From the NCBI GenBank assembly GCA_963674695.2, contig CAXXGI010000003.1:480001-544000 (forward strand): 64,000 nt of DNA. Reading direction: 5' to 3'. Origin of the DNA: a bacterium (GTDB lineage: Bacteria; UBA10199; 2-02-FULL-44-16; JAAZCA01). This document shows, in pieces, positions 2,053-37,089 of this stretch. Below the pieces are notes generated by a model, which did not search any database, had not been told where the DNA came from, and saw only the letters and a program-made list of their open reading frames with translations. Positions within the stretch are counted from its first letter, which is position 1. The number at the start of each line of letters is the position of its first letter. Made by a program: the position numbers and the translations under genes.

Positions 2053-2080
2053 ATGTTACATAATATATCTTATACGACGT
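2053..2080 (-). other. dif: dif-like site (XerC/XerD), attL of the prophage
   Basis: Minus strand ACGTCGTATAA-GATATA-TTATGTAACAT, an 11-6-11 layout; XerD arm matches E. coli TTATGTTAAAT at 9/11. Confidence 0.85.
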
Positions 2081-2098
2081 CCGCAGTACGAACAAAAA

Positions 2099-2194
2099 TA
2101 ATCACAACAACGCACAGACTTGCGACAGACACCCGCTAAGATGGTGTCGCGGCCCTTGCGGGCAATCCATGCGTTGTTGTGATTAGCGGGTGTC
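2099..2194 (-). ncRNA. C4/CI-like antisense RNA with adjacent target site
   Basis: 2099-2114 pairs with 2170-2185; internal GCCC-GCAA-GGGC hairpin (minus strand); 2128-2139 is perfectly complementary to 2183-2194. Confidence 0.6.
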
Positions 2195-2235
2195 ATATTT
2201 ATTTTGTTACTCCCCTGAAAAACAAAACTCAAGAG

Positions 2236-2403
2236 CTATTTTCTCTCGGGCCACTTTTTTCCCTCACGCCGCATACGTTCCATGAGCGATTGGATGCAAT
2301 AGTTGTTCGCCGATTGGAGGGCGGCCCTGGCCGCGCGATTGACCGACTCTAGCTCTGCCGGTGTAACTCTGACGTGAATTGTCTTCTTGTCTCGTTCCCG
2401 CAT
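2236..2403 (-). CDS. Ribbon-helix-helix (Arc/HicB-like) DNA-binding protein
   Basis: KTIHVRVTPAELESVNRAARAALQSANNYCIQSL; GGAGGG RBS before ATG 2403. Confidence 0.65.
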   Translation of the reverse strand: MRERDKKTIHVRVTPAELESVNRAARAALQSANNYCIQSLMERMRREGKKWPERK

Positions 2404-2538
2404 CTCGTCCCTCCGATGTACGAATACTTCCACAGTAGGCCCACAGCGTCAACAAAAAAGCGCATGAGCCCTCCGCTGACCATGGCATTACAATGGCATT
2501 TAATGGGGGTTACAGTGAAATCATATTTTTTCGGGAAT

Positions 2539-2778
2539 TTAGCTGTTCTCCGCAACCGCGAGCTGCGCCCAATGCTCGGACTCCAGTCGGGCGTGATAAT
2601 GCGCGATGAGAGCTCCCAGGGCGATCTCTGCGTCGATATTGCCATGCACGGCGTTCCGGGCCTGGTCGATGAGCCTCTGCTCCTCAATCTCTCTCCGGTT
2701 TCGGGGGGACGACTCCACCTGCCCGCCGTCGTGGTTGTTGTATTTACCGATGCTCATTCCAGACCGGCTCTTTCTCAA
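2539..2778 (-). CDS. Small phage hypothetical protein
   Basis: Co-oriented ORF filling the gap after the spanins. Confidence 0.45.
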   Translation of the reverse strand: MRKSRSGMSIGKYNNHDGGQVESSPRNRREIEEQRLIDQARNAVHGNIDAEIALGALIAHYHARLESEHWAQLAVAENS

Positions 2779-3001
2779 CCTTGATGATATATGTTTTCAC
2801 GTTCTCATCATTGATAAGCACGGGGACAATCGTCACCTCGCACCATTCCTCGCCGTCGATAACGTGACAATTCCGCACCTGCACAGGCAATAAATCCGGC
2901 CTACGGTGCATCGGGCGCTTCGTCAGGCCAGCTGGACAACATCCGAGCAGCATCATCAGCAGGCACAAAGCCAGACAGGATTTTATAAACACGTTTATCA
3001 T
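2744..3001 (-). CDS. Lipoprotein, o-spanin (Rz1-like) candidate
   Basis: Signal peptide with lipobox LLGC; overlaps the i-spanin candidate out of frame. Confidence 0.55.
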   Translation of the reverse strand: MINVFIKSCLALCLLMMLLGCCPAGLTKRPMHRRPDLLPVQVRNCHVIDGEEWCEVTIVPVLINDENVKTYIIKVEKEPVWNEHR

Positions 3002-3221
3002 GGGCCACCTCGATCTCTTCCTGGTCCTCAGTCGATTCGTTGATTTCCGTGATTTGTTTGGTGGCGGTCGTTTCTTGTCGCGCTACATTCCGGTTGTGTT
3101 CGTATTGACAACCCTTCAGAAAGCCCGCAAAGAAAATGCCCGCAGCAATAGCCATGCAGATCGTATATTTGTTGACGAGCAGTTCCTTCGCGGTTTTCCC
3201 TGCAAGAATTGAAAATATCAT
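2901..3221 (-). CDS. i-spanin (Rz-like) candidate
   Basis: N-terminal TM helix then hydrophilic helical region; in the lysis cassette; start overlaps the holin stop. Confidence 0.55.
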   Translation of the reverse strand: MIFSILAGKTAKELLVNKYTICMAIAAGIFFAGFLKGCQYEHNRNVARQETTATKQITEINESTEDQEEIEVAHDKRVYKILSGFVPADDAARMLSSWPDEAPDAP

Positions 3222-3412
3222 TTCGCCTGTTCCTTCTTCGCCAGCCCGCGACTGATCGTATATGCGGACGTTGTGATGCCCATAATCGTAGACGCGACGA
3301 TCATTGCAGCGGCGGCATGACCGGAATAGATGCCCGCGAGAGCCGTAAACATCGCACCGAGATTGACAAAAACTGTAATCCAAAATTCAGAAGTCTTTGC
3401 GCCAGCTCGCAT
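3218..3412 (-). CDS. Holin candidate
   Basis: 64 aa, KTSEFW motif, two TM segments, basic tail; adjacent to endolysin. Confidence 0.65.
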   Translation of the reverse strand: MRAGAKTSEFWITVFVNLGAMFTALAGIYSGHAAAAMIVASTIMGITTSAYTISRGLAKKEQAK

Positions 3413-3421
3413 AGGTCCCCC

Positions 3422-3784
3422 TCAAGGCAACTGAAAATGACAGTCTTCCATGCGCAGATTTATCAACCCAAGACTGTTCCCAATCTCGACGGCCCTCTTC
3501 CATGCTGGGCCTTTCGTGTTCCAGTCGAGTTTGCCGCCGACCGAGATCGCAATGTCGAACGCCATTGCTGGCAATGAGTTGTGCCGACTCTTCCCAGGTT
3601 TGCAGCGCGTAAGTATCTTTCCCGATTTTGTTCTGCCCTGTGCGTATAGCTCCGCCTGCTCTTCGTTCGATCTGTGAGTGCACGTCAGGAATGCGTCATA
3701 TCCGGCTTCGTCCATCATTGCGTCCATCTTCGCCCACGCCGCCTTCAGTTTCGGAGCCAAGAGATTTGGGTTTCGACTGGCCAT
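3422..3784 (-). CDS. Endolysin, M15 family peptidase
   Basis: RSNEEQAELYAQGRT, SRHN...AFD, EDCHFQL zinc-peptidase motifs. Confidence 0.85.
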   Translation of the reverse strand: MASRNPNLLAPKLKAAWAKMDAMMDEAGYDAFLTCTHRSNEEQAELYAQGRTKSGKILTRCKPGKSRHNSLPAMAFDIAISVGGKLDWNTKGPAWKRAVEIGNSLGLINLRMEDCHFQLP

Positions 3785-3786
3785 AT

Positions 3787-4005
3787 TCACGTTCCCCGCT
3801 TCATCCACTCCTTCAGCCACAACAACACAAACCCAACCATCGCTGCGACAAACGCAATCGCCCCTGTGATCCGGTGTCGCCACTGTGTGTTTTTCTTCAC
3901 GGCATCACACACCCCGTCGATCTTTTCGCCCATCGCATCGACGGACGCCTTCATGCTTCCTATCTTTTCCGATATATCAATGAGGATAACGCGCTCGTCG
4001 GTCAT
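3787..4005 (-). CDS. Coiled-coil plus C-terminal TM lysis-region protein
   Basis: 72 aa, single C-terminal hydrophobic helix, upstream of endolysin. Confidence 0.55.
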   Translation of the reverse strand: MTDERVILIDISEKIGSMKASVDAMGEKIDGVCDAVKKNTQWRHRITGAIAFVAAMVGFVLLWLKEWMKRGT

Positions 4006-5648
4006 AACACCGCCTTGTAGATTGAATGATTCCCGCTCACGTCTGAATAGGATATTTTTGTTCCGACGGTTAGGACTCTGAAGCTGATATATTTTATGGA
4101 GGTATATGAAGTATCTGTCGCGGATAACTGCTCTATATCATCAACATAGACCTTCATAACTCCCGCGGCTGATATTGTCCAAGTGTGTTTATGCCAAGCA
4201 TCCATCGTAAAAACGCCACCTGTAACTAGATAGTTCATTTCTTTTCTCAAAGCTATTGAACCATTGCTGTATGTAACATTGTAATTTGTTCCGGTTGATA
4301 TATCGTCAATCACTTCCTCGCTCAGTTGAAAATATACCTGAGCACCAAACGGAGTTGGCATTTTCATCCAGAATTCGAACCTTCCATGCAACGCCTCCGT
4401 TGGAGTTTGCCCGAATACAGAAATCGGCATGCTGAAATTACCAATAGATACATTTTCAATCGCTTTCACATCCGCGCCGTTAATTGAATCGGTTGAGATT
4501 CGCCATAAGCCAGAATCAATAGTAAATGGTGTGTTTTCTAAAAACCCTCCAGTTCTGGTTGATGCTGAAACATGAGCACCCCAATCGGTTTTCCACGATT
4601 CAGGGTAAATCTTTCCAACCTCGACCACGTTCACGTTATCGAACCACACGCTGTTAATGGTCGTTCCGTTATAATAAAATTGTACGCTCGCATTTGTCGC
4701 AACGAATGTTTCGTCAAACGATTGAAACGACGCATCGGTTGTGCCAACCCACAGGGTGGCGCCAGAATACACGCGAGGGGGCACCGTTCCGTTCCCACGA
4801 GCTTTGCCTGTCACTCGATACGTTTTGCCGACTTCAAGAAATGACTGATACGCCCCGGGGTTGTTCGCGCCGGTTCCAGTGATTTTCAACGACCGCGTCC
4901 CGCTATATTTTATAGTGGTGTCTTTTGTTAGGTCTCCGCTTCCGCAGGCCAGCCATGACGCAACACCAGCCGCTTCCATATCGCCGTCGGCAATTTCGTT
5001 TGGGTCGGATTGTTTTGCTTTCGCAGTCGCCTTCTGCGGCCACCGCATTCCCTCCATCTCATCTTGTACATCAGAGATTTCGGTGTCAGTTAAAATCCGA
5101 TTTACAATGACGATCCATGCAATCAGACCGTCATACGTTCTCGTCCCGTCCGATCTATTCCCGACAATCACATTCGTGGTCCCCGCTGCTGGCGTTCCGC
5201 TCGCGGAATCGGAGACTGTTTCGATGGCGTCTTTGAAGATGTTTACGACGCCCGCGCTGGTTCTGGTAATCCCGATCACAACGGGTGTGCCATAGTCTAT
5301 GGCGCAATTCGCCGTAACGGTTCCACCGCCATTCGACGACACATTGACGGCGCTCAAGTCCGGCGTCTGGACAATGAATTTGCCATTATCCAAAAATTTA
5401 CCGTAACCATTTTGGCCTTTGGATCTGGCATTTATTTTAAAAACAACGGATATGTCCCCCGCTCCGATGAAATCAGCGCCAAGGTCGATGCCCCCAGCGA
5501 CACCGTCGAAGTTCCACCCGAGTCTGGAAAACGATAGACTGTTGGGCGTTCCGTCTTTGGTGCTACCAAAATCAAGACAGCATCCAGATCGGCCGTCGTG
5601 ATACGAAAGAAGTGCACCCTCGTTTTTAAGCTTCTGGATTGTGCTCAT
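4002..5648 (-). CDS. Virion protein with LamG/ConA-like and carbohydrate-binding-like domains (receptor-binding candidate)
   Basis: YDGLIAWIVIVNRILTDTEI (LamG-like), NEIADGDME and VWFDNVNVVEV (CBM-like), second lectin-like C-terminal domain. Confidence 0.65.
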   Translation of the reverse strand: MSTIQKLKNEGALLSYHDGRSGCCLDFGSTKDGTPNSLSFSRLGWNFDGVAGGIDLGADFIGAGDISVVFKINARSKGQNGYGKFLDNGKFIVQTPDLSAVNVSSNGGGTVTANCAIDYGTPVVIGITRTSAGVVNIFKDAIETVSDSASGTPAAGTTNVIVGNRSDGTRTYDGLIAWIVIVNRILTDTEISDVQDEMEGMRWPQKATAKAKQSDPNEIADGDMEAAGVASWLACGSGDLTKDTTIKYSGTRSLKITGTGANNPGAYQSFLEVGKTYRVTGKARGNGTVPPRVYSGATLWVGTTDASFQSFDETFVATNASVQFYYNGTTINSVWFDNVNVVEVGKIYPESWKTDWGAHVSASTRTGGFLENTPFTIDSGLWRISTDSINGADVKAIENVSIGNFSMPISVFGQTPTEALHGRFEFWMKMPTPFGAQVYFQLSEEVIDDISTGTNYNVTYSNGSIALRKEMNYLVTGGVFTMDAWHKHTWTISAAGVMKVYVDDIEQLSATDTSYTSIKYISFRVLTVGTKISYSDVSGNHSIYKAVL

Positions 5649-10078: not shown

Positions 10079-11585
10079 GATAACCCTCCATTATTGACGG
10101 GATCGTTGAACCCAATTTCACCCCGTTGACGTAGTAAAAACCGCAGTCCGTCAGTATGTCGTGCGTGCAGGTTGAATCGCTGCTCACAACATCCGTTCCA
10201 ACGAGATTGTCAAAGTACGGGTGGCCGTCACTCATCACAACATCGCCCGTGTCAAACTTATGGAGGTAGAACTTGTGATTTTCAGGCCGCAAGCAACAGC
10301 TTGTTGCGAGAACCTTCCCACCCTTCACGGAGTCGCCGGGCCTGACGTCCTCTACGTTTTTAGATCCGTCGTCCGTTTCAATCTTCGTTCCCTTTGGCAG
10401 GCAGAACATGCCCATACCTAGACCTGCTCCGATTCCACCCGCGATCCCACCCGCGGCGCTCCCAATGAGCCCTGGGCTTCCCTGACTTCCAGGTTGTCCG
10501 CCAGTGGAAAGTTGGTACAGCCGGAAGAGGTCGTTCATTGGCTGACGCTGCATTTCGTTTTGCAATCCATACTCCCCGAGGGCCAACTGACGGGCACCCG
10601 TCTGCTGATTAAACGCCTGATTCTGCTGCTGTAGTTGCTGCTGGCGCTTCTGTAAGGCCGTCTGCGCCAAGAACTGAGCTTGCTGATCCGATGCGCCCTG
10701 CTGACGGAAAAGTTCCTCCGCCTGGGCTTGCTGACGGGCGAAATCGGACTGCTGCTGCATCCCCTGCTGTTGCGTGTTTAGGTTTGCGCCGAACTGAAAT
10801 GCCCCAAGCTGCTGCTGCCCCTGCTGCGCTGCCAACTGTGATGCGATGTCCGCAAGTCGGTTGCTCTGCCGATCACGTTGAGTCATTATCGCCTTGGTGG
10901 TTCCGCCAGTCGTCAACATCCCCCTTGCGTTCATGTCCTCAAGAATTCCAGCTCGCTCATCGGTGCCTTCGCGCTGAGTGAGACGCTTTGCAATATCGTA
11001 TTGTGGCGTGAACGAATCGCCGACCGCTTTCATCGGGTCGAACCCCTGAAAGTCCCAGTTGTAGCCCTGGAATTGGAACGGGTTGCGAGATTGAAAGTTG
11101 ACGTCGAAATCTGGGAGCTGCGACGCTTCCGCTATTGCATTCGCGTTCTGCTGATTTGCAATATCTTCGTTGAGTCCCTTTTCCCTTGCCGATTGAAACA
11201 TCCGACCAAGGCCACTAAATGGCCCCTTGTATTTCGTGCTCGGGTCATTTGCCGTATTGATATTCGATAGCTGCGATTGAAGATCACCAAGACGCTGCTG
11301 GCCTTCTAGCAAGTGGCTTCCCGAAAAGGTGGTCGGTGTCAGTTGACCTGAAATGGCCTGTCCGGGTGTGAATCGATTTGCAGATGCAGGGGAAATAGTC
11401 CCGAGCTGTCCCGCATAGCTATTCATCTGCGGGTACAGATCGGGATACATCCCCATGAACTGCGAAAGCATGTAATCGTTCAGCATGCCGCCCTGGGTAT
11501 CCCACCCTGGGCCTCTGAACGCTTGCGGATCACTTCCACCACTACCAAACAGCATGTCGGTTATGAAGCCTGCGCCTCCGAACAT
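10071..11585 (-). CDS. Ejection/pilot-like protein with C-terminal Hint domain
   Basis: Gln-rich coil, Gly-rich TM segment, then CLPKGTKI...VEDVRPGD...DGHP...FYYVNGV. Confidence 0.7.
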   Translation of the reverse strand: MFGGAGFITDMLFGSGGSDPQAFRGPGWDTQGGMLNDYMLSQFMGMYPDLYPQMNSYAGQLGTISPASANRFTPGQAISGQLTPTTFSGSHLLEGQQRLGDLQSQLSNINTANDPSTKYKGPFSGLGRMFQSAREKGLNEDIANQQNANAIAEASQLPDFDVNFQSRNPFQFQGYNWDFQGFDPMKAVGDSFTPQYDIAKRLTQREGTDERAGILEDMNARGMLTTGGTTKAIMTQRDRQSNRLADIASQLAAQQGQQQLGAFQFGANLNTQQQGMQQQSDFARQQAQAEELFRQQGASDQQAQFLAQTALQKRQQQLQQQNQAFNQQTGARQLALGEYGLQNEMQRQPMNDLFRLYQLSTGGQPGSQGSPGLIGSAAGGIAGGIGAGLGMGMFCLPKGTKIETDDGSKNVEDVRPGDSVKGGKVLATSCCLRPENHKFYLHKFDTGDVVMSDGHPYFDNLVGTDVVSSDSTCTHDILTDCGFYYVNGVKLGSTIPSIMEGYHA

Positions 11586-12136
11586 TTCGGCCCGTCTTCC
11601 TCCGACACAGGAGCCGACACTCCCCTTTTGTGCAATTTATTGAAAGCGCCCTTCGTGACAGAGTATCTTTTCACGTCGTGAAACTCGCCATCCGCATAAA
11701 CCTCGTTTTCGAACGTCCCATCTTGCTTGAACCCCACCTTTTCAAGCAGTCCGATCGACGCTTCGTTGTCTGCGCGCGGCGTGCCGATGATCTTGTAGAA
11801 GTTCATCGAGTTCATGACATAATTGCACATGAGTACGAACGCGCCATAGAACAGCCCGTTACGCTGATGTGCCTTGTCGATCATTCCATGAATGTGCAAA
11901 TTCCTGTGCCTCTCCTTGATCTCCGATAGCACAATGATTCCGTAAACCTCATCAGGAACCTCTGTATTTACGATCACGAAAGCATTTCTGACGTCCCTCG
12001 ACATCGAAAGCGTGAACGGCTCGGAATTGCCGAAGAACATTTCGTAATCACCTGAATGATTCCACCGATACACGTGCCCCGCATGAAACTGCGGCTCATA
12101 TGGAATCAGCATCACTTTGTTATTTGAAAGTCGCAT
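11561..12136 (-). CDS. GNAT acetyltransferase (RimJ/RimL-like)
   Basis: HQRNG and DNEASIGLLEKVGFKQDG motifs. Confidence 0.8.
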   Translation of the reverse strand: MRLSNNKVMLIPYEPQFHAGHVYRWNHSGDYEMFFGNSEPFTLSMSRDVRNAFVIVNTEVPDEVYGIIVLSEIKERHRNLHIHGMIDKAHQRNGLFYGAFVLMCNYVMNSMNFYKIIGTPRADNEASIGLLEKVGFKQDGTFENEVYADGEFHDVKRYSVTKGAFNKLHKRGVSAPVSEEDGPKCSEAQAS

Positions 12137-13838: not shown

Positions 13839-14300
13839 TTACTGATATTTTATGCGAACACCGTGCATATCAGAATTCATGTCAGTTGATGTCATGCTCA
13901 AATAATAACCGTAATTCATGTAATCCAATTCAACGTTAAGAGACATTGTTTTCACAACGTCTGCATTGGCAGCGGAATGCGTATAGTTAATATGATCTAT
14001 CTCTGTTTGCGTTCCGTCGATGTAAGCCAGTTTATAAAAATACACATTGTACGTTTCGAGATTCAGAGCCTGAAACGACCAGTCGATTGATAGTATCGAC
14101 GCGCCGTCACTCAACACAACCTCCTGGTCCGTGTCGCCAGATATAAACCTAAATGTCCCACCTCCCGGATATGTTGCATATTTTCCCTTAATCATCTGTG
14201 CATATAAAACGACGTACCACTTGCGCATCCTAACAAAGAAATCTGGATATTCTCCTGCGTCACGAGGTTCATTCGGTGGCGTTCCTATCTCGAATATCAT
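13839..14300 (-). CDS. Tail-region structural protein
   Basis: ATG at 14300 overlaps the upstream stop (ATGA). Confidence 0.55.
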   Translation of the reverse strand: MIFEIGTPPNEPRDAGEYPDFFVRMRKWYVVLYAQMIKGKYATYPGGGTFRFISGDTDQEVVLSDGASILSIDWSFQALNLETYNVYFYKLAYIDGTQTEIDHINYTHSAANADVVKTMSLNVELDYMNYGYYLSMTSTDMNSDMHGVRIKYQ

Positions 14301-24130: not shown

Positions 24131-24255
24131 AGTACCTCTCCCGCGTTTCGCAGGAAAGGGCGGGCATCTCACCGTGGGGGTAAATTGAAATGCTGACGAG
24201 CGTGCCCGGTTCCCTTCCCACACATCAGAGATTAGCACGCCGTCAAGAATAACGC

Positions 24256-24471
24256 CTATGGGATTGAATGGTAGAGTGTGGTTTTGTTCGGTAGGTTTTT
24301 TGATTTCACGATGTTTTTGTCCATCCACTTCACAAGATCGCATTCCTCAACGACGATCCTTCCGTTGATTCGCTTGATTGGGAGCGGGCTGCTTTCATGC
24401 CACCGCCTCACGGTTTCCCAGCTTCGCCCGACTCTCTTTCCTATACCCTTCCATCCCCACAGTAAGCTCAT
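24256..24471 (-). CDS. Small HTH (Xis/AlpA-like) DNA-binding protein
   Basis: LWGWKGIGKRVGRSWETVRRW...LPIKRINGR. Confidence 0.65.
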   Translation of the reverse strand: MSLLWGWKGIGKRVGRSWETVRRWHESSPLPIKRINGRIVVEECDLVKWMDKNIVKSKNLPNKTTLYHSIP

Positions 24472-25381: not shown

Positions 25382-25858
25382 TCACTCCCCCTTTCGGATC
25401 GCTTCCAGTACGGCAGAGCAACATCCGCACAGCGCATTGTACTCATCGATTGTGAGTACAACGACGTTTCCTGCGCTGTTGTGTCCTGGATTTACGTCAT
25501 TGATAATAAGTCTGGTTTCTTCAGCCCACAACACTTCCACTTTCCTCATACACCGCTCCCTCTCTGCCGCTACACCACGACTCCACGCAAGCGAGCAATT
25601 CAACTCATAATCAGCAGCCCATCGTTTGAGATTTTTTGCCATTTCTTTATCCATCACTTCCATTTTCTGTACTTCTTTCATCAGCCGATCGATCTCCTCA
25701 CGCATCCGCTCCTCTGTCCTGCACATCTCGGCCAGGTATGGGCATGTTGATATGCAGTTGTTCGTTGGTTTATCCGTCGCTCCCTTACTCGTATTGCGGC
25801 GGCTATACTCAAACCCAGCCTGTGCTATCGTTTCGGCTAACGGCTTGTCACTATCCAT
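25382..25858 (-). CDS. Mosaic hypothetical protein
   Basis: Shares ATDKPTNNCISTCPYLAEMCRTEER with 26074-26364. Confidence 0.55.
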   Translation of the reverse strand: MDSDKPLAETIAQAGFEYSRRNTSKGATDKPTNNCISTCPYLAEMCRTEERMREEIDRLMKEVQKMEVMDKEMAKNLKRWAADYELNCSLAWSRGVAAERERCMRKVEVLWAEETRLIINDVNPGHNSAGNVVVLTIDEYNALCGCCSAVLEAIRKGE

Positions 25859-26064
25859 CGCTCCCCCCTTCTAATTCGATCCACGATCAGCTGCGCTTCG
25901 TTATCGGACGAACACAGCCCGAAGATGATCGAGCAGCACCGCTCACGCTCTTTGGCAGCTGCCTCTTTCGTTATCTTCTCTTCGTGTTCGCAGATACATA
26001 GCATCTGTTCATAATTCTCGTCGTTCATATAATCGGAACCGCATTTTGGGCATCTTCCATACAT
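25837..26064 (-). CDS. Mosaic hypothetical protein
   Basis: Shares ERERCCSIIFGLCSSDNEAQ with 26361-26576; GGAGG RBS. Confidence 0.55.
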   Translation of the reverse strand: MYGRCPKCGSDYMNDENYEQMLCICEHEEKITKEAAAKERERCCSIIFGLCSSDNEAQLIVDRIRRGERWIVTSR

Positions 26065-26073
26065 AACTACCTC

Positions 26074-26364
26074 CTATCGCTCGCGCTCGGCCTCCTTCTC
26101 TTTCAGCAGCCGATCGATCTCATCACGCAGCCGCTCCTCTGTCCTACACATCTCGGCCAGGTATGGGCATGTCGATATGCAGTTGTTCGTTGGTTTATCC
26201 GTCGCTCTCTGATTGTTTTCGATTGCTTCCGATGCGATGGCGCATAGTTTTTCTATAAGCCTTTCTGGATTTACCACAACATCCGTCAGAGGATTCCATG
26301 TATCGTCCGTTCCCCTATCTCCTATTGCCGCCATAATAGCTTCTCTGATTTCCTTATCCATCAC
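26074..26364 (-). CDS. Mosaic hypothetical protein
   Basis: Carries the duplicated module; coupled start. Confidence 0.55.
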   Translation of the reverse strand: MMDKEIREAIMAAIGDRGTDDTWNPLTDVVVNPERLIEKLCAIASEAIENNQRATDKPTNNCISTCPYLAEMCRTEERLRDEIDRLLKEKEAERER

Positions 26365-26576
26365 TCCCCCTTTCTGATTCTATCTACGATCCGTTGCGCC
26401 TCGTTGTCCGACGAACACAGCCCAAAGATGATCGAGCAGCACCGCTCACGCTCTGTTGCGACGGCATCACATATTGCCTCCAAGCAAAATGACGAAGACA
26501 GCATTTGTCCAGGCTGCACTTTATCCCCGTCGAGATAGTTATTCTCGAACCACTTTTTAAGCTCATCGTGTGTCAT
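26361..26576 (-). CDS. Mosaic hypothetical protein
   Basis: Carries the duplicated C-terminal module. Confidence 0.5.
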   Translation of the reverse strand: MTHDELKKWFENNYLDGDKVQPGQMLSSSFCLEAICDAVATERERCCSIIFGLCSSDNEAQRIVDRIRKGE

Positions 26577-26611
26577 TTCTTCATCTCCCTCTCCAGATCC
26601 TCCAACGCCCT

Positions 26612-26950
26612 TTACTTCTGCTCCGTTGGAAGACTGTGCTTCCACGGCATGAAGTCGGTAACGGTTTCGAGATTGACAAAAACATCACCAACTGGCTCAA
26701 CTTCAGATAGGGTTCCATCCTTGATGGCGTTCATAAACCTACCACTATCAGCTACCCACGATGCAGAGACGAGATGAAGAAAACTTCCGACCCTCGCCTT
26801 CACTTTACCAACAAAGTGATATGTAACCGTTCGGATGAAGAAAGAATTTCCAATCATTTCATCAAAGCATGAAAGTTCAAAGTCTGTGTCTTTCAATTGA
26901 GCCTTGATTGTTTCATACGTCTCGTCACTGATTACAATTGTCCTTGTCAT
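26612..26950 (-). CDS. Putative Sm/LSm-like beta-barrel protein
   Basis: IGNSFFIRTVTYHFVGKV...LHLVSASWVADSGRF...VFVN pattern resembles Sm1/Sm2 strands; AGGAG RBS. Confidence 0.5.
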   Translation of the reverse strand: MTRTIVISDETYETIKAQLKDTDFELSCFDEMIGNSFFIRTVTYHFVGKVKARVGSFLHLVSASWVADSGRFMNAIKDGTLSEVEPVGDVFVNLETVTDFMPWKHSLPTEQK

Positions 26951-26986: not shown

Positions 26987-27199
26987 TTAACTCGACCTAG
27001 ACCTAGACCTAGACCTCGACCACGACCTCGACCACGACCTCGACCACGACCTCGACCTCGACCACGACCCCGACCACGACCCCGACCTCGACCACGACCC
27101 CGACCACGACCCCGACCTCGACCTCGACCCCGACCTCGACCTCGACCACGACCCCGGCCACGACCTCGACCCCAACCCTGTATAACTTATCACTATCAT
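26987..27199 (-). CDS. Ser-Arg/Trp/Gly dipeptide-repeat peptide
   Basis: About 30 hexamer repeats TCG-NGG; GAGGAG-like RBS; directly upstream of the Sm-like gene. Confidence 0.6.
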   Translation of the reverse strand: MIVISYTGLGSRSWPGSWSRSRSGSRSRSGSWSGSWSRSGSWSGSWSRSRSWSRSWSRSWSRSRSRSRSS

Positions 27200-29166: not shown

Positions 29167-30345
29167 CTATCCCTTAATGACCGCCAGCGGTGACAACTCA
29201 GCTACAATATCAACAAGGTCTTCTTGGTTCTTCATCACGGTGCCAACGTCTTTGTATGCTCCTGCGGCTTCATCCAAATCCTTCTTGCTTCTCATCCCAT
29301 GAATGATTCCCTGTTCGTCCATGCGTGCAAGTTCATCTTTCAAGCTCAAAGTCCTCCGTGCTGCCTTGCGACCCATCGCCCTACCAGCCCCGTGAGAACA
29401 CGACGTAAACGATTCACGGTTCCCCTTGCCACGGACGATATAGCTCTTGCTCCCCTGGCTGCCTGGAATGATCCCGATGGTATCCTCACGGGCAAGCGTA
29501 GCACCCTTGCGATGCACGACCACGTTCTTCCCGAAGTGGTTTTCAATGGCGGCATAGTTGTGGGCAATGTTGATTGGGTTTCCAATATCACTACAGCCTG
29601 TGACGCCTTTGAATATCTCGACGACCCTATCCATCATCAACGAACGATTCGCCAACGCGAAGTCTACACAGTATTGCATTTCTTCCATGTAATTTTCGCC
29701 CTGTAAGTGATCCAGAGGAAGAAAAGCAAGGTCCCATTCGCGTGGCACACAAGAAAGGTATTGTTCGTTTAATTTCTTAGCTATGGAATTATAATGGTCA
29801 GCCACCTTCTTTCCCAAGTTCCTGCTTCCAGAGTGAATCATGACCCAAACGTAACCACAATCATCACGCTGAATTTCAATAAAATGGTTTCCACCTCCAA
29901 GAGTCCCAAGCTGCCGAAGCGCAGATTCAAATTCATTGGAAGCTACCGTCCACCCCCAATATTCACCGTTGGATCGCTTAGGCATAAGGCTCTCGTCTTG
30001 CCTCTCACTATGCCGAGAGAACCCAACGGGAATGGCCCTTCGAACCCGCCCCATGATTTCCTTGAGCTGGTCGGTGGTGATGTCGTTCGCTTTCATCCCT
30101 GTCTGTACTGCTATCATACCACAACCAATATCCACCCCAACTGCGTTCGGCACTACGACGTTATGAGTCGCGAGCACTCCACCAATCGGCATTCCGTACC
30201 CCTGATGACAGTCTGGCAGTAATGCGATATGCTTGAACGCGAACGGAAGGTTAGCCAAATGCGTTGCCTGTTCAAGCGCGCCCTCCTCTATATCGTCAAG
30301 CCACGCCTTTATTGGAATGCGATTCCCGCTGATAACCTGTTTCAT
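29167..30345 (-). CDS. rtcB: RtcB family RNA ligase
   Basis: LPDCHQGYGMPIG, VGVDIGCG, LGTLGGGNHFIE, HSGSR, AHNYA, HRKGAT, SHGAGR, DEA..AYK. Confidence 0.92.
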   Translation of the reverse strand: MKQVISGNRIPIKAWLDDIEEGALEQATHLANLPFAFKHIALLPDCHQGYGMPIGGVLATHNVVVPNAVGVDIGCGMIAVQTGMKANDITTDQLKEIMGRVRRAIPVGFSRHSERQDESLMPKRSNGEYWGWTVASNEFESALRQLGTLGGGNHFIEIQRDDCGYVWVMIHSGSRNLGKKVADHYNSIAKKLNEQYLSCVPREWDLAFLPLDHLQGENYMEEMQYCVDFALANRSLMMDRVVEIFKGVTGCSDIGNPINIAHNYAAIENHFGKNVVVHRKGATLAREDTIGIIPGSQGSKSYIVRGKGNRESFTSCSHGAGRAMGRKAARRTLSLKDELARMDEQGIIHGMRSKKDLDEAAGAYKDVGTVMKNQEDLVDIVAELSPLAVIKG

Positions 30346-30504
30346 TGTCTTCCCCTTATCGTAATACGTTTGAACGTAACCCTGTCGAAGTAACCGAACA
30401 CCATCTTCCCGCCGTATGGCATGTAGACAACAACTTCCCACCTATTCTTGCGAACAATCTCAGCACGGATATTCCTGCTTGCGATTCTGAGGTGCACGAC
30501 CATA

Positions 30505-30729: not shown

Positions 30730-31077
30730 TTATATCCGTTCCCAAGTCTTCCCACGTTTCCTGACCACGGTGAGCGGCGATAACGGATGGTGCGAGTCAA
30801 ACAACTTTCGTTTCATCCTAAACGCCTCCGTTACAACCCCCTTGACCTCTATCACTTCAACGCTTCCATCCGGGCGGTACACCGTAAAATCCGGCGTGTA
30901 CGTCACGTTCCCTGGCAAGCGGTAGGCTGGTTTCACTTCCAAATACGCAATGCGCTCCATGCCGAGATCCCTTTTCAAGAGCTGATAATATTCCGCTTCT
31001 GCCTTGCTATCGAACCGCAGCCCGTCGATCTCCGTGGGCTTGGCGTTGTATTTGTGGCGGTTCCAATGCACGCTCAT
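30730..31077 (-). CDS. DUF1064-like PD-(D/E)xK nuclease
   Basis: KYNAKPTEIDGLRFDSKAEA, YTPDF, IEVKG. Confidence 0.8.
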   Translation of the reverse strand: MSVHWNRHKYNAKPTEIDGLRFDSKAEAEYYQLLKRDLGMERIAYLEVKPAYRLPGNVTYTPDFTVYRPDGSVEVIEVKGVVTEAFRMKRKLFDSHHPLSPLTVVRKRGKTWERI

Positions 31078-32177
31078 AATTTCACGCTCGTTGCTTTCTT
31101 CGTTTTTGCAGGAGTGTAGATTACCCATTCACCATTTTCATATTTTCGACAGCATGAACAATCTTTCAGCACGCCGACCTGGGAGTTTCCCCACAGCTCG
31201 CCGACCCGGGAGTTTCCCCGCAGCTCGCCGACCCGGGAGTTTTCCCGCAGCTCGCCGACCCGGGAGTTTTCCCACAGCACGCCGACCCGGGAGTTTCCCC
31301 GCAGCTCGCCGACCTGGGAGTTTTCCCGCAGCACGCCGACCCGGGAGTTTCCCCACAGCACGCCGACCTGGGAGTTTTCCCGCAGCTCGCCGACCCGGGA
31401 GTTTCCCCACAGCTCGCCGACCCGGGAGTTTTCCCACAGCACGCCGACCCGGGAGTTTTCCCACAGCACGCCGACCCGGGAGTTTTCCCACAGCACGCCG
31501 ACCCGGGAGTTTCCCCGCAGCTCGCCGACCTGGGAGTTTTCCCGCAGCACGCCGACCCGGGAGTTTCCCCACAGCACGCCGACCTGGGAGTTTTCCCGCA
31601 GCTCGCCGACCCGGGAGTTTCCCCACAGCTCGCCGACCCGGGAGTTTTCCCACAGCACGCCGACCCGGGAGTTTTCCCACAGCACGCCGACCCGGGAGTT
31701 TCCCCGCAGCTCGCCGACCTGGGAGTTTCCCCGCAGCTCGCCGACCTGGGAGTTTTCCCACAGCTCGCCGACCTGGGAGTTTTCCCACAGCTCGCCGACC
31801 CGGGAGTTTTGCATCGATCCAATTTTAGTATTGATTGCCACCCTGTAGCTTGCGTTTCTCACCGCTTCGATTTTTTGATCGACCAAAAATTTTTTCGAAA
31901 TAAACTCCTTCAATGCAGCTTCCGTTATGCGCCTCGCCTTCGTTGGATCATACCAAACAGGGACTTCATCGAGATCCGTGCGGAACTCCCATTTCGACAA
32001 ATCCATTTCAGACAAATTGCCATCTGGCGGTGTTAGCTCTACGGGGACAAAATCAGGCGGCAGCTTGTTGTCCCTGAGTTTATTCTCTCGCTTAATATCT
32101 TCGTGTGAATCTGAATCCCACGAAAACAAGCATTTTCTGTTTTTGTACGTTACAATTCCGCTAAAGAAATTACACAT
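31074..32177 (-). CDS. Protein with 24 nine-residue tandem repeats (beta-solenoid candidate)
   Basis: MCNFFSG...SHEDI N-terminal domain then NS[RQ]VG[EV]L[WR][EG] x24. Confidence 0.7.
   Translation of the reverse strand: MCNFFSGIVTYKNRKCLFSWDSDSHEDIKRENKLRDNKLPPDFVPVELTPPDGNLSEMDLSKWEFRTDLDEVPVWYDPTKARRITEAALKEFISKKFLVDQKIEAVRNASYRVAINTKIGSMQNSRVGELWENSQVGELWENSQVGELRGNSQVGELRGNSRVGVLWENSRVGVLWENSRVGELWGNSRVGELRENSQVGVLWGNSRVGVLRENSQVGELRGNSRVGVLWENSRVGVLWENSRVGVLWENSRVGELWGNSRVGELRENSQVGVLWGNSRVGVLRENSQVGELRGNSRVGVLWENSRVGELRENSRVGELRGNSRVGELWGNSQVGVLKDCSCCRKYENGEWVIYTPAKTKKATSVKL
31167..31809. repeat. 27-bp tandem repeat, about 24 copies
   Basis: Minus-strand unit AACTCCCRGGTCGGCGWGCTGYGGGRA. 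Confidence 0.95.
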
Positions 32178-32868: not shown

Positions 32869-33654
32869 CTACGCCTCCAATGGGATAACCTTGCCGTGCT
32901 CGTCGAAAATGGGATTCCCCTTCTCGTCGGTCTTCCACTTTGGCTTTGGCACCTTGCTGCGATGCTTTTGCAAAAAAGCATTCACCTCTCCGGGGACAAA
33001 CGCCACTGGGAAGCCCTCCTCCTTTGCCTTGCCGCCCTTCGAAAAGAAAAACGCGCATAACTCAGGCCACTGCTCTTTCGGCACCGCCGCCGCTATTTGC
33101 TGGCCGATCTTTCCAGCCATCCCCCACCACTGCTTCGGAGTGTGGTAGTCCTCGCCAAAAGCCCGCTTGTACTCGTGGCAAAAAACAGATCCGAAATTAT
33201 TTGGGGACGGGGGGGGATCTTTGACCTTCTCCTTCCTTCCTTCCTTCCTTCCTTTCCTTTCCTTCCTTCCTTCCTTCCCCCCGGAGTGTTCCGGGAGTGT
33301 TCCCGGAATGTTCCCGGAATGTTCCGACATAACTGGAATCATTGATTTTTTCGGATGGCTGATCGATTGGTGGTCGTCGAAGTCGTGACATTGGATATAT
33401 TTCTTTCCGTCGACCTCGTACCTGTGGATAAGTTGCGTTTTTTCGAGTTCGTCGAGGAGTTTTTCAACCACCTCGCCGGTCGCCGAGTAGTACCTCGGAC
33501 ATCGTGCCCCGATCTCCATCACATCATCGACAAGACGCCCCTCATCGTCTGCGTGGTTCCACAGCGAAATATTGAGGAATGCCGCGTCAACAGAGCACCT
33601 AAGCTGTTTTCCGCTTGAGAAATAATCAGGTTTCACGGTTCGTATCCTCGCCAT
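32869..33654 (-). CDS. Phage replication initiator with internal origin
   Basis: MARIRTVKPDYF...LWNHADDEGR N-terminal domain; internal iterons. Confidence 0.75.
   Translation of the reverse strand: MARIRTVKPDYFSSGKQLRCSVDAAFLNISLWNHADDEGRLVDDVMEIGARCPRYYSATGEVVEKLLDELEKTQLIHRYEVDGKKYIQCHDFDDHQSISHPKKSMIPVMSEHSGNIPGTLPEHSGGKEGRKERKGRKEGRKEKVKDPPPSPNNFGSVFCHEYKRAFGEDYHTPKQWWGMAGKIGQQIAAAVPKEQWPELCAFFFSKGGKAKEEGFPVAFVPGEVNAFLQKHRSKVPKPKWKTDEKGNPIFDEHGKVIPLEA
33231..33325. promoter_or_regulatory. Putative replication origin: (CCTT)n tract plus four 11-bp iterons
   Basis: SGGARTGTTCC at 33282, 33293, 33304 and 33315. Confidence 0.65.
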
Positions 33655-33950
33655 TAGAAAAGCTCCCCCTGAGAATCACGCTCTTTTGTGCACCACTCGA
33701 TCGACATCCTACCGCTCACCCTGCACATGCGTTTGTGGCATCGATCTCCGCTCGGAACCGATCCCTCTTTCCTCAAATCGTCGATCCTCGCGCTGATCGT
33801 TCCCGGAAACCATCCGAACACCTCCGACAATTCCCTGATTGTGCTCGGGCGTCTTACCAGATGCCAATAGATCGCTTCTCTCTGGTTCCTCGCCGTTCCG
33901 TCGTTCAATATTTCATGCCGTGCCATCAGGCTTGTTGGTTGCACTCGCAT
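33654..33950 (-). CDS. Winged-HTH protein
   Basis: STIRELSEVFGWFPGTISARIDDLRKEG. Confidence 0.65.
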   Translation of the reverse strand: MRVQPTSLMARHEILNDGTARNQREAIYWHLVRRPSTIRELSEVFGWFPGTISARIDDLRKEGSVPSGDRCHKRMCRVSGRMSIEWCTKERDSQGELF

Positions 33951-34197
33951 ATTCCCTCCAATACTTTGCAGCGAGCTCCTTTAATTCGTCTCGATAAGCC
34001 CCAATGAAACGATGGACACGTTCATGACACCGACGGCAGAGAGGAACGCAGCTCTCATCGTCTCCTCGTTTAGAAAGCCCTCGATCATTGTAAACGTGAT
34101 GGGGATCATTGCCGTGCCATGATGATTGCGCCCCGCATCGACAACAGGGTTGCTCTCTGATCCAACGCAAATAAGGTTCATTTTTCACCTTCATCAA
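33913..34197 (-). CDS. DUF968/HNH-like nuclease
   Basis: YLRWIREQPCCRCG...DPHH...VPLCRRCH. Confidence 0.75.
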   Translation of the reverse strand: MMKVKNEPYLRWIREQPCCRCGAQSSWHGNDPHHVYNDRGLSKRGDDESCVPLCRRCHERVHRFIGAYRDELKELAAKYWREYASATNKPDGTA

Positions 34198-34540: not shown

Positions 34541-34556
34541 GACTCCCCCAAGAGAG

Positions 34557-34602: not shown

Positions 34603-34615
34603 GAACCCTAAAAGA

Positions 34616-35728
34616 TTAGATCGGCACATCCGCTTCATTTTCTTCCTTCGGCGGCTTGCTTCCATTTCCACCACCGGGCAACCCGAGGTGTTCAATTTTA
34701 ACGCGCTCAATTGCCGCCTCAATATCCTCCGGTCGCTTCCTCTCGATTGCAGTTTTTGAGCTTGTACCGAAAAGCTGCTCCAAAACTTCAATCCGTCGTT
34801 TTTTGGTATCGCCGGAAGTGCCCGTCAGGCCCGCCTTTGTGAGTACAGCATCGAACTCTTCAAGTGCTATGTCGCGCCGCCGAAACATTCGCTGCAATGA
34901 TCCATCACCATTATCATCGAACATATCTTCGGACGTGCTCGTGGTGTTCAGCCCGTAATGCTCACCTCCAAGGTTAAGGCATTCGATGTGTGGCAGATAG
35001 TCATCGAACTTCGGGTTGTCGAATGACTTTGAGTCGAGTATTCCGAACCGCTCTTTGACCACGTTGCAGCGACGAACGTAGGTCCCATCACCCTCTGAAT
35101 AGACCTTCTCCATCTCGCAGAGGATTGACGGCTCATACCCGGTGTCACCCTCTGCACGCATCTTCGTTCCGCTCTTCACGCTCGTCTTTTTTGTCCTGCC
35201 GTTTCGCTCTTGTTCTTCTGTGGTGTAGATCGCGCCTTCCCTGCCGCACATTATGATGTGGAGCTTGGAATTGACGAAACGATCGCGGTATTGCGTGCGC
35301 CACTCCTTCTTGATTGGCTTCCAGTCCCACAACTCGATGTAGTTCTGTTTCCGCTTCTTCATGTAGGCATCGGTGAACTCGTCCCATACGTTCGTGATCG
35401 AATCGATAATCAGAATGGAGCATTCCTTTTCCGCTTCATCCATGACCGCGACCAAGTCCTTGAGCGCCGATCCGTTGAACGTCACAAGCTCGATTCCCGC
35501 CGTCTTGAACTTCGGCAGAATAAAACTCGACCCCGTTTCTGTGTCGAAGAACGCAACGGGCTTGTCGCTCTTGATGAACTTATGCAGTCCGAGAGCCACC
35601 CCTGATGCCGTCCATGTTTTTCCGGACCCCGTATCTCCGTAGAGCCCCATTTTTAGATATGCCATTGTGTTTTGTGCTGGTTTTAAAAGTCCCACAACTG
35701 CCTCCTCTCCCGTTCTTGACACTCCCAA
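34616..35728 (-). CDS. Sak4-like AAA+ ATPase (recombination)
   Basis: GDTGSGKT, FFDTETGS, LIIDSIT. Confidence 0.75.
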   Translation of the reverse strand: MGVSRTGEEAVVGLLKPAQNTMAYLKMGLYGDTGSGKTWTASGVALGLHKFIKSDKPVAFFDTETGSSFILPKFKTAGIELVTFNGSALKDLVAVMDEAEKECSILIIDSITNVWDEFTDAYMKKRKQNYIELWDWKPIKKEWRTQYRDRFVNSKLHIIMCGREGAIYTTEEQERNGRTKKTSVKSGTKMRAEGDTGYEPSILCEMEKVYSEGDGTYVRRCNVVKERFGILDSKSFDNPKFDDYLPHIECLNLGGEHYGLNTTSTSEDMFDDNGDGSLQRMFRRRDIALEEFDAVLTKAGLTGTSGDTKKRRIEVLEQLFGTSSKTAIERKRPEDIEAAIERVKIEHLGLPGGGNGSKPPKEENEADVPI

Positions 35729-35932
35729 TCAATGAGAGTATCCAGAACGTGCTTGCGTGATCTTGTGCAATAGAGTCCGCACTCTGAACTGTTCTTCGAG
35801 ATACGATATTTCGTCCTCGAAAAACGCTTGCTCAAGATCCGGGTCCGGGTCGACCATACGGTCGGCCCGTTCTGCATCTACGAACGTCTTCCACTCTCCG
35901 TGCTGCCTGGTCCCCCACGCCATGAGCTTCAT
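35729..35932 (-). CDS. Hypothetical protein
   Basis: GGAGG RBS, coupled ORF. Confidence 0.5.
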   Translation of the reverse strand: MKLMAWGTRQHGEWKTFVDAERADRMVDPDPDLEQAFFEDEISYLEEQFRVRTLLHKITQARSGYSH

Positions 35933-36141
35933 GATTCACCTCCTTTCTCTAAAATATTTTTCGCCTTGTTTATTACAAGCAGTGCAAGAAAGATTGCGTT
36001 GGTAACGATCTTCGGATCTCCCCTCAACGACGGCCGTAGCAGGACTTTTGTTAGCGACTCACATTCCACGACCAACTCGCGGATAATCGCGTCCCTCTCC
36101 GCATCGACATCGGCGATCATTTTTAGTGCGTGCTCGGTCAT
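35929..36141 (-). CDS. Hypothetical protein
   Basis: MTEHALK...; start follows the upstream stop. Confidence 0.5.
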   Translation of the reverse strand: MTEHALKMIADVDAERDAIIRELVVECESLTKVLLRPSLRGDPKIVTNAIFLALLVINKAKNILEKGGES

Positions 36142-36145
36142 GGGT

Positions 36146-36448
36146 TCACCCCGCCTTTCTTTGCCACCGTTTATCGTTGCAGGTCGTGCAGATGAGGACG
36201 TAAACGAGGCATCCCGTTTCGGGATCGTACTGACGTTCCATGTCTTCTTTGAGAAGCCGCAGCCCGCAAGCTGCACACTCCGCGGTGTACTCTTCGCAGT
36301 CAGGGCAGAGAGGCTTTCCCTTGGAATCCACGGCCTCTTCCCCTGGGCGGCAGTCGATTCCACCCCCACAATGAGAGCAGCGCATATCCTCGTCCCGATC
36401 TTCCGGTGAGGCCAATTTGTATGCGTCGTATCCTGGCAGGCGTTCCAT
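36146..36448 (-). CDS. Multi-CxxC zinc-finger protein
   Basis: CSHC, CPDC, CAAC and CTTC motifs. Confidence 0.6.
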   Translation of the reverse strand: MERLPGYDAYKLASPEDRDEDMRCSHCGGGIDCRPGEEAVDSKGKPLCPDCEEYTAECAACGLRLLKEDMERQYDPETGCLVYVLICTTCNDKRWQRKAG

Positions 36449-36451
36449 CGT

Positions 36452-36823
36452 TCACCCCTTTCCGCCGGCAATGGCGATCAACGTAGGTCGTTGAGGTTCA
36501 ACGCGACGTTTCTTTGCGTCGTGAAAAATGCGCTGCTTGATGAGAGTGTTTTGCTTCGATTGATACCCGCTCGCGCGCGGCCCCTTGACAATCGGGGCAA
36601 ACGGATTGCGCGAGCGAAACACGCACCCCGAATGCTGTGCTCGACGCCACGCCACGGTTGCCGATAGCTCGTAGGCGACATGCCAACACCGGGAGTGCTG
36701 CCAGTTGATGTCGATAACTTGGTACAGTGCGGATTGTGCGCGCCTGACTCGGCGCTCGATCGGGCCACTGCGATAAATCGTGACTTCCTGGCGCACTTTG
36801 AGCGCCTTGACCACAGAGAGCAT
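36452..36823 (-). CDS. First early gene, basic hypothetical protein
   Basis: GAGGAGG RBS; directly downstream of the sigma54-type promoter. Confidence 0.55.
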   Translation of the reverse strand: MLSVVKALKVRQEVTIYRSGPIERRVRRAQSALYQVIDINWQHSRCWHVAYELSATVAWRRAQHSGCVFRSRNPFAPIVKGPRASGYQSKQNTLIKQRIFHDAKKRRVEPQRPTLIAIAGGKG

Positions 36824-36893
36824 AGATCCTCCTCATGCTCTCCCCCATGCGAGCATCCGGGTTGCGCCGACGGGCGGCGTGTGCTAACCCCGA

Positions 36894-36911
36894 TTGCATT
36901 GATCGTGCCAA
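36894..36911 (-). promoter_or_regulatory. Sigma54-type promoter of the phage early operon
   Basis: TTGGCACGATCAATGCAA (GG-N10-GC). Confidence 0.65.
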
Positions 36912-37061
36912 TTTTTGGGCCTTATTTATCAGGTACTTGCGTGACTGGTGGCGCTGCGGATTGGAGCGGTTTTTGTCCAACTTCAAACTCAAGATATGGA
37001 CGGGCAAACTCAAGACGGATTTTGTACACGCTTGATTATCAAGAGGTTTTGATGTAAGTAG

Positions 37062-37089
37062 AGCGGTGTTTTTATATCTTATACGACCC
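37062..37089 (-). other. attR: dif-like site with degenerate XerD arm
   Basis: Minus strand GGGTCGTATAA-GATATA-AAAACACCGCT. Confidence 0.8.

Follow-up and report, generated by a model that had tools for sequence, protein, structure and literature searches.

A tailed prophage of about 35 kb, in which no integrase is recognizable, lies exactly inside dif, the XerC/XerD recombination site, of a bacterial chromosome. The element occupies C3:482,064-517,087, where C3 denotes contig CAXXGI010000003.1 of a three-contig host genome of 3.03 Mb (G000), and it was analyzed within C3:480,001-544,000, a 64-kb stretch hereafter called the window; positions given without a contig name count from the first letter of the window. 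At a probability of roughly 0.7, we favor the reading that an intact phage of the Caudoviricetes lysogenized through XerC and XerD, the recombinases of its host, by recombining a dif-mimicking phage attachment site (attP) with the chromosomal dif, and thus that it is a tailed-phage IMEX (a mobile element that integrates by exploiting Xer). The position of a 35-kb tailed phage without an integrase exactly inside dif suggests that a large tailed phage can lysogenize by means of borrowed XerC and XerD.

Element borders, the dif site, and a proposed route of integration

The element is bounded by a 15-bp repeat, TATATCTTATACGAC, at 2064-2078 and 37073-37087 (plus strand) and measures 35,009 bp from repeat start to repeat start. 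Both the repeat and a length of about 35.0 kb had been described in the original prediction, which was made from the sequence letters without database searches, and both were reproduced here. With up to two mismatches allowed, the repeat occurs twice in the 64-kb window, and none of 100 dinucleotide-preserving shuffles reached two or more occurrences. The interval has a GC content of 0.48 to 0.56, versus approximately 0.60 in the flanks, and its open reading frames (ORFs) are tightly packed and nearly all on the minus strand. At the left border, the repeat is part of a full 28-bp site, ACGTCGTATAA-GATATA-TTATGTAACAT, on the minus strand at 2053-2080, with the predicted 11-6-11 layout of XerC arm, central region, and XerD arm.

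This left site is the chromosome's dif, as established by its uniqueness, single copy, conservation, synteny, and motif polarity. A search of the 3.03-Mb genome with the 28-mer returned no second match at up to seven substitutions, which confirms the site as the sole dif, and a proteobacterial-type dif consensus matched only 2053-2080 genome-wide. A looser dif pattern had three matches genome-wide, about the chance level that we estimated by hand. Two dif-like matches, at C3:557,592 and C1:734,422, were considered as rival dif sites and rejected: the XerD arm is good in each, but neither the XerC arm nor the central region resembles that of dif. Of the 93 genomes in the class (which, as sampled, make up the whole phylum), 14 have the 15-mer formed by the XerC arm and the central region, 13 of them in a single copy and only G000 in two copies.

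The locus is conserved as well. Nineteen loci of relatives were retrieved with rpoH, all from other genera and with DNA 66 to 74% identical; in 12 of the 19, rpoH is followed by a complete site with both arms, and in one more the site is cut at a contig end. Proteins of these relatives are labeled only as belonging to Pseudomonadota or Deltaproteobacteria metagenome-assembled genomes (MAGs). Alignment of 18 genomes yielded the dif consensus A..T.ACATAA / TATAYC / TTATACGAC (plus strand of the window), and shc lies within approximately 100 to 400 bp of the XerC side of dif in 13 other genomes. Because the site and its synteny are conserved in relatives, rpoH-dif-shc is taken to be the ancestral empty arrangement, with the phage exactly inside the site. 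The original prediction had pointed to phage-free relatives as informative, and those available, all of other genera, do carry rpoH-dif-shc with a full 28-bp site exactly at the insertion point.

The polarity of GGGNAGGG, which we take to be an FtsK-orienting motif, changes at the same place. On C3, the motif occurs 70 times on the plus strand and 18 times on the minus strand to the left of the site, and 13 and 97 times, respectively, to the right of the prophage. Its cumulative polarity reaches a maximum between C3:480,883 and 490,023, with dif at 482,053-482,080. The further expectation that dif would lie at the switch of GC skew stood insofar as the motif polarity flips at the site; for the skew itself it stood only in part, the switch being broad and offset. 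With the prophage left in, the cumulative GC skew peaks at 475 to 480 kb, and dnaA lies at C2:47 kb, beside the skew minimum of that contig.

The right junction is a hybrid. Compared with the left site, it matches at 6/6 positions of the central region, 9/11 of the XerC arm, and 2/11 of the XerD arm, and the block of identity stops exactly at the boundary between the central region and the XerD arm, which is one of the two Xer cut positions. Since the left host flank contributes the XerD arm and the right one a XerC arm, the dif present before insertion can be reconstructed as GGGTCGTATAA-GATATA-TTATGTAACAT. The phage attP is implied to have been ACGTCGTATAA-GATATA-AAAACACCGCT, composed of a XerC arm and an identical 6-bp center without a XerD arm. 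In the circular phage, attP would sit between the late-operon hairpin (2098-2186) and the gene-poor stretch of about 620 bp (36449-37072), the latter containing two exact 11-bp repeats, CAAACTCAAGA, at 36984 and 37005, 21 bp apart.

Independently assembled Logan contigs from three runs (two samples of one study, perhaps including the source sample) bridge rpoH, dif, and the phage without differing letters. The bridging records are 24.8, 2.9, and 0.9 kb long, have a depth of 8 to 13, and come from runs that look like metagenomes; among the matches listed, none has a loose end or joint at 2063-2080. This evidence covers the left junction only, and assembled contigs cannot reveal a rare attP or an empty attB.

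From the anatomy of the two sites, we infer that XerC and XerD catalyzed the recombination. The host encodes both: XerD at C3:409,717-410,616 scored 357 bits on TIGR02225 (cutoff, 329.6), and XerC at C3:742,300-743,205 scored 338 bits on TIGR02224 (cutoff, 335.15), both being NCBIfam equivalog models. A crossover between the dif-mimicking attP and the chromosomal dif, catalyzed by these enzymes, would yield a usable complete dif next to rpoH and a hybrid lacking the XerD arm next to shc, and the two junctions have this composition. The hybrid should protect the prophage against deletion by FtsK-activated XerCD at every division, as described for the gonococcal genetic island. As all six central base pairs match, the crossover could be completed whichever strand exchange came first. 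In a XerC-first route, which would be the default and independent of FtsK, replication, XerD, or perhaps the DUF1064 protein of the phage (30730-31128) might resolve the junction. A XerD-first route like that of the Vibrio cholerae satellite TLCphi would need an activator other than, and unrelated to, the TLCphi protein XafT, because XafT and its domain DUF3653 were not found in the genome. Possible phage helpers are the putative ribbon-helix-helix (RHH) protein encoded at 2236-2433, the zinc-ribbon protein at 36146-36448, and the DUF1064 protein; the first two may act as accessory factors on the paired CAAACTCAAGA repeats. The phage is presumed to be able to excise.

Recombinase search, related phages, and alternative explanations

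The original prediction had noted no recombinase motif in any ORF of the interval, and hidden Markov model searches of the whole genome in six frames (E ≤ 10) bear it out, none of the families searched having a match inside C3:482,064-517,087. Outside the element, the same searches found Phage_integrase (PF00589) five times, Resolvase (PF00239) four times, the large serine Recombinase family (PF07508) once, on C2, rve (PF00665) once, on C2, the IS110 DEDD family (PF01548) five times, and DDE_Tnp_1 (PF01609) twice, on C2. Nor was an integrase remnant detected: a tblastn search of the element with the integrases of two relatives and with the host XerC and XerD gave a best E value of 0.099 (25 bits). 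Scans of single ORFs (40 with Pfam, 40 with PHROGs, 6 with NCBIfam, and 39 small or alternative ORFs with Pfam and PHROGs) also returned no recombinase. The element thus appears to encode no recombinase of the known families searched; an enzyme of an unknown family would lie beyond these searches. No Rfam family or tRNA was matched in the element, promoter and terminator predictions were no more numerous than expected by chance, and a codon-usage score did not discriminate among the small ORFs near attP.

Two candidates were set aside. The 367-amino-acid ORF was considered as a hidden recombinase, and it proved to be a member of a family of phage proteins, with nonapeptide repeats after a conserved N-terminal domain; feature-based Atlas neighbors of this ORF and of the 223-amino-acid ORF are viral hypothetical proteins. 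An excisionase-like match to HTH_17/phrog_66, probably in the ORF at 24256-24471 just upstream of terS, was not counted as a Xer factor because its homologue lies among the packaging genes of an integrase-bearing relative, G093; a PDB search with this ORF was uninformative.

Two IMG/VR genomes that are complete with terminal repeats, G093 (37.2 kb) and G097 (32.6 kb), have the structural module in common with the dif phage, at identities of 48% and 61%, respectively, for the large terminase subunit (TerL), 34% and 51% for the portal, and 46% and 51% for the capsid. G093 carries a tyrosine integrase together with a CI-like and a Cro-like HTH_3 gene. These three are flanked by the early genes on one side and by the endolysin end of the late operon on the other, and the map position of this integrase is that of attP in the dif phage. 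Integrases also occur in 4 of 15 additional related IMG/VR records, among them each of the 3 with a completeness of 90% or more; no integrase was found in G097, G094, and G096, which are rated as complete. A dif-like 28-mer in G097 was considered and judged to be due to chance, as it is located within a small ORF, in a packed operon and away from the convergent junction. Only one of the 93 genomes of the phylum (G046, from a different family within the class) contains a related capsid gene, at 51% identity. Its syntenic 37-kb prophage (C195:45,711-82,753) has a tyrosine integrase (C195:81,628-82,674) adjoining tRNA-Gly(CCC) and attachment (att) repeats of approximately 44 bp at both ends; it also contains a tRNA-Ile gene. 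Other searches were sparse: the portal had no word match in IMG/VR, one remote match in INPHARED, and none in 21 other genomes of the order, and the AAA_24 protein matched one short MAG contig in a search of genome contigs.

These integrase-type relatives (G093 and G046) resemble the dif phage in TerL (48 to 49% identity), capsid (46 to 51%), portal (34 to 36%), AAA_24 protein (46 to 57%), and gene order, and they differ from it in having a tyrosine integrase, with CI-like and Cro-like HTH_3 genes in G093 and att repeats of approximately 44 bp at a tRNA gene in G046. As the G046 prophage and G093 share the module, an integrase/tRNA type and a dif type occur within one phage lineage and host class. 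The relatives lend support to a swap between an integrase and a dif-mimic module. A more specific and tentative proposal, which we regard as possible but would not bet on, is that the phage lineage exchanged its integrase-attP-repressor module for a one-armed dif mimic and now lysogenizes through XerCD without a XafT-type factor; this would imply either a new phage Xer activator or accessory factor or a XerC-first route with resolution by the DUF1064 protein, and it would make dif an overlooked attachment site of the Caudoviricetes.

Several observations weigh against lysogeny through XerCD. The genome is probably a metagenome assembly whose read check covers the left junction only, and neither a circular attP form nor an empty attB of this species was seen in the assembled contigs. 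Neither a second lysogen nor a free phage with the attP was found in IMG/VR and JGI metagenome contigs: a 30-mer across the phage arm and core had no match in IMG/VR, and a 26-mer of dif and a 20-mer of the phage arm and core had none in the JGI contigs. DUF3653 (PF12375), the domain of XafT, had no match genome-wide in six frames at E ≤ 10, where the published survey used profile-profile comparison. The XRE-type repressor domain HTH_3 (PF01381) had none in the element, which offers only weak hints of RHH regulators. Many of the early ORFs are orphans, and the 223-amino-acid ORF had no homologue besides itself in a word-indexed search. Finally, once the prophage is removed, the skew maximum moves to approximately C3:595 kb, about 110 kb rightward, on a plateau at approximately C3:480-620 kb with a clear sign change at approximately 600 to 640 kb. 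The skew switch and the GGGNAGGG switch (482 kb, at dif) are therefore 120 to 160 kb apart, and C3:517-640 kb has a weakly positive, left-arm-like skew but right-arm GGGNAGGG polarity (18 minus versus 2 plus). The replichores would measure approximately 1.34 and 1.69 Mb under an assumed contig order, judged to be the most balanced one.

The alternative that survives best, and that we nevertheless consider improbable, is an accidental, one-off capture by XerCD, which would have left a virulent or pseudolysogenic phage stuck at dif without regulated maintenance or excision. The missing XRE-type repressor and XafT domain and the failure to find another lysogen or free phage would fit such an event, as would the complete relative G097, which shares the structural module and has neither an integrase nor a convincing dif mimic. 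However, by our own calculation, a perfect match to the 15 bp of XerC arm and center is expected only about 6e-5 times per 35 kb, and the match falls between genes, in the space that separates the late terminator from the early genes; the integrase and attP of temperate relatives are located there. All genes look intact, moreover, the prophage junction is present in two samples, and the element has both a candidate RHH regulator and a lipoprotein-like moron on the opposite strand.

Somewhat less probable again is a recombinase of the phage itself, from an undescribed or too divergent family, that targets dif by chance. Room for one could be sought in the early ORFs of 223, 168, 139, and 158 amino acids and the attP-adjacent ORFs, all without a family; a single-sequence AlphaFold model of the 223-amino-acid ORF was unusable (predicted local distance difference test score of 35.7). 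Set against this are the lack of a match in the element to any of the six recombinase and transposase families, the identity of the largest early ORF of unassigned function as a phage-family repeat protein, and the Atlas neighbors, which are viral hypothetical proteins and not recombinases. The crossover, furthermore, coincides exactly with the Xer cleavage positions and regenerates dif.

It is very unlikely that the element is a grounded prophage, integrated by an integrase of its own whose gene was later deleted. Close relatives do carry integrases, but neither HMM nor tblastn searches found a remnant within the element, there is no room for one outside the repeats because rpoH and shc abut the sites, and the rest of the phage is intact; such an integrase would also need to have its core at the region of dif in which Xer crosses over. 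The slimmest chance is that of an assembly artefact, in which a phage contig was misjoined into a metagenome-assembled chromosome: the metagenome-like runs, their depth of 8 to 13, and a read check on the left junction only leave some room for it, but independent Logan contigs bridge the left junction in 3/3 runs without differing letters, a 15-bp repeat is too short for a misjoin, and both junctions are exactly reciprocal, as site-specific recombination predicts.

Gene content of the element

Terminase, portal, and an HK97-type major capsid protein are all present in the integrated phage (Table 1), which is the gene set of the Caudoviricetes. The prophage looks intact because none of its large genes is interrupted and all of them can be aligned from end to end with those of relatives. 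A podovirus morphotype (SU10-like) is plausible from the matches obtained: SU10-like capsid (E value of 0.0031) and adaptor (7.3e-05) matches, both under the Pfam cutoffs, and a weak match to an internal virion protein. No tape-measure, tube, or sheath family matched in the ORF scans of the element, the longest ORF of which has 612 amino acids.

Table 1. Sites and genes of the prophage and its flanks, in window coordinates
Positions	Strand	Feature	Evidence or remarks
1034-1954	+	rpoH, sigma-32-like host gene, left flank	NF005143, 4.5e-80; syntenic in relatives
2053-2080	-	Complete dif (attL): host XerD arm TTATGTAACAT, central GATATA, phage XerC arm ACGTCGTATAA	
2064-2078	+	Left repeat copy: central 6 bp and 9 bp of the XerC arm	
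2098-2186	-	Hairpin and U-run, likely late-operon terminator, 20 bp from the core	Folding free energy (dG) -55.3 kcal/mol, z -4.68, 0/200 shuffles
2236-2433	-	Likely RHH (Arc/CopG/NikA-like) DNA-binding protein, candidate regulator or accessory factor, terminal on the XerC-arm side	
3422-3883	-	Endolysin (VanY/peptidase M15-like)	phrog_465, 4.3e-15; PF02557, 2.7e-06
4002-5648	-	Likely receptor-binding/tail-fiber protein with lectin-like and carbohydrate-binding module domains	PF02018, PF13385
6738-7319	+	Opposite-strand ORF with lipoprotein-like signal, moron candidate, within the tail-gene block	Sequence reading, no family match
11561-12136	-	GNAT acetyltransferase, accessory-looking, within the tail-gene block	
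14297-15886	-	Structural protein, weak internal-virion-protein match	phrog_511, 2.9e-4; kept in G093, G097, and G046
15886-16851	-	Head-tail adaptor-like protein	PF24175, 7.3e-05, under the family cutoff; kept in relatives
18024-18971	-	Major capsid protein	phrog_9953, 5.9e-67
19736-21574	-	Portal protein	Remote match to an annotated head-to-tail joining protein; 34-51% full-length identity to relatives
22303-23694	-	Terminase large subunit	phrog_979, 1.4e-37
23687-24343	-	Terminase small subunit	phrog_3064, 6.5e-17
29167-30441	-	RtcB RNA ligase, full-length	PF01139, 7.1e-113
30730-31128	-	DUF1064 protein, PHROGs annotation Holliday-junction resolvase	PF06356, 4.9e-26; phrog_190, 1e-35
31074-32177	-	367-amino-acid protein, about 24 nonapeptide repeats following a conserved N-terminal domain	DNA repeat of 27 bp x 23.9
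32869-33654	-	Replication initiation protein	phrog_1408, 2.3e-22; iteron-like 11-bp repeats inside the gene, 33280-33325
33913-34197		DUF968/HNH nuclease match	ORF assignment by sequence reading
34616-35728	-	AAA_24/Sak4-like ATPase	PF13479, 5.4e-11; phrog_1366, 2.9e-37
36146-36448	-	Zinc-ribbon protein, likely first early gene	Zinc-ribbon matches in the small-ORF tally; assignment by sequence reading
36449-37072	.	About 620 bp without a convincing gene, on the degenerate XerD-arm side	ORF scans
37062-37089	-	Hybrid site (attR): host XerC arm GGGTCGTATAA, central GATATA, phage AAAACACCGCT replacing the XerD arm	
37146-39227	+	shc, host squalene-hopene cyclase, right flank	TIGR01507, 3.2e-199

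The assignment of the terminal ORF on the XerC-arm side to the RHH proteins draws on three sub-threshold PDB matches, all of them to RHH proteins (E values of 0.16 to 1.3), and on a NikA-like match (1.2e-05) in 1 of the 39 small ORFs, which was assigned to this ORF by sequence reading. The phage RtcB may counter tRNA-cleaving defenses of the host. In the 367-amino-acid protein, the N-terminal domain reads MCxFxS...DSHE...VRVE.TP...W...VD...P.W and the repeat NSxVGxLRE; it has 48 homologues, mostly of 210 to 250 amino acids and none of them named. The early genes of G093 include, instead of this nonapeptide-repeat protein, a pentapeptide-repeat protein of 276 amino acids (L081:1452-2282, minus strand, 1.9e-69). 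A TCCT-rich tract and 4.2 copies of the 11-bp CCCGGAATGTT occupy 33225-33325, inside the initiator gene; the repeats are iteron-like, and it is possible that the phage origin lies within this gene.

Other repeats were noted in the early region and in the left flank. Four adjoining small early ORFs at 25382-26645 (minus strand) contain shuffled common segments: those at 25837-26064 and 26361-26645 have ...ERERCCSIIFGLCSSDNEAQ.IVDRIR.GE in common, and those at 25382-25858 and 26074-26364 have ATDKPTNNCISTCPYLAEMCRTEER in common. At 26991-27171, the hexamer CTCGAC occurs approximately 30 times, and the overlapping ORFs score as noncoding by codon usage. In the host flank, 36 bp to the left of dif, 1985-2017 (C3:481,985-482,017) is a hairpin-forming element of about 30 nucleotides with the core CCCGCTTTCGTGGGAATGAC. 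This element is present in many copies, with 17 matches in G000 when the rpoH flank is the query, and also occurs in many genomes of the class; the summed Logan contig depth rises over it from approximately 13 to approximately 650.

Significance and comparison with known Xer-exploiting systems

If the phage did lysogenize through XerCD, the Xer strategy scales to a 35-kb Caudoviricetes genome. The dif phage and its relatives would then form a natural pair of integrase type and dif type within one phage lineage and host class, useful for the study of module exchange. The case would also suggest that Xer has activating or accessory factors that are not related to XafT, and phages of this kind would be misclassified or missed by integrase-based prophage finders and lifestyle predictors. 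A dif consensus with conserved rpoH-dif-shc synteny is now available for an uncultured bacterial class.

No lambda-like lysogeny module, with an integrase by attP and CI-type and Cro-type regulators, is recognizable in the element, in which neither PF00589 nor PF01381 has a match. The Xer-exploiting elements described in the literature searched are inoviruses, PM2-like double-jelly-roll phages, gokushoviruses, satellites, islands, plasmids, and LME-1, and the integration sites of Vibrio tailed prophages are ascribed to phage-encoded integrases (PMC12715192; PMC11630473). In the open full-text literature searched, supplementary tables aside, we found no description of dif use by a phage with terminase, portal, and HK97-type capsid.

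The closest parallel in site anatomy is TLCphi, a satellite of V. cholerae without an integrase, whose double-stranded attP has a good XerC arm, a center matching dif, and a degenerate XerD arm, with an ORF-free stretch on the XerD side; its integration by a full crossover restores a functional dif (PMC6744903). The dif phage likewise has a degenerate XerD arm (2/11), a center identical to that of dif (6/6), and an ORF-poor XerD side. It is unlike TLCphi in being a 35-kb tailed phage, TLCphi being a small, rolling-circle satellite that encodes XafT (a helix-turn-helix domain plus DUF3653), which activates XerD.

In the gonococcal genetic island, a degenerate arm is reported to prevent FtsK-dependent excision, and a XafT-like gene is absent (PMC6744903; PMC9765430). 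The dif phage shares the modified dif and the absence of a XafT-like gene and differs in being a virus and not a genomic island. LME-1 of Legionella pneumophila is a phage-like integrative element with a 22-bp partial dif; one of its ends is left with the wild-type dif and the opposite end with a modified dif that recombines poorly (PMC9765430). It is unlike the dif phage in that it depends on the single recombinase XerL, resides in another host group, and, in the text accessible to us, is called phage-like without a tailed-virion gene set being described.

The coexistence of two integration strategies has its precedent among tailless phages. Ma and Zhang divided Vibrio double-jelly-roll phages into int-type and dif-type members (PMC12715192), and in PM2-like and filamentous prophages of Vibrio and Pseudoalteromonas, the dif-type attP is either full length or a one-armed 17-bp site (PMC12715192; bioRxiv 10.64898/2026.02.19.706829; PMC11630473). 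Those elements are tailless or filamentous and carry terminal rstR and xafT genes, whereas the dif phage has terminase, portal, and HK97-type capsid genes and no xafT. Like them, the dif phage belongs to a virus group that contains both int-type and dif-type members.

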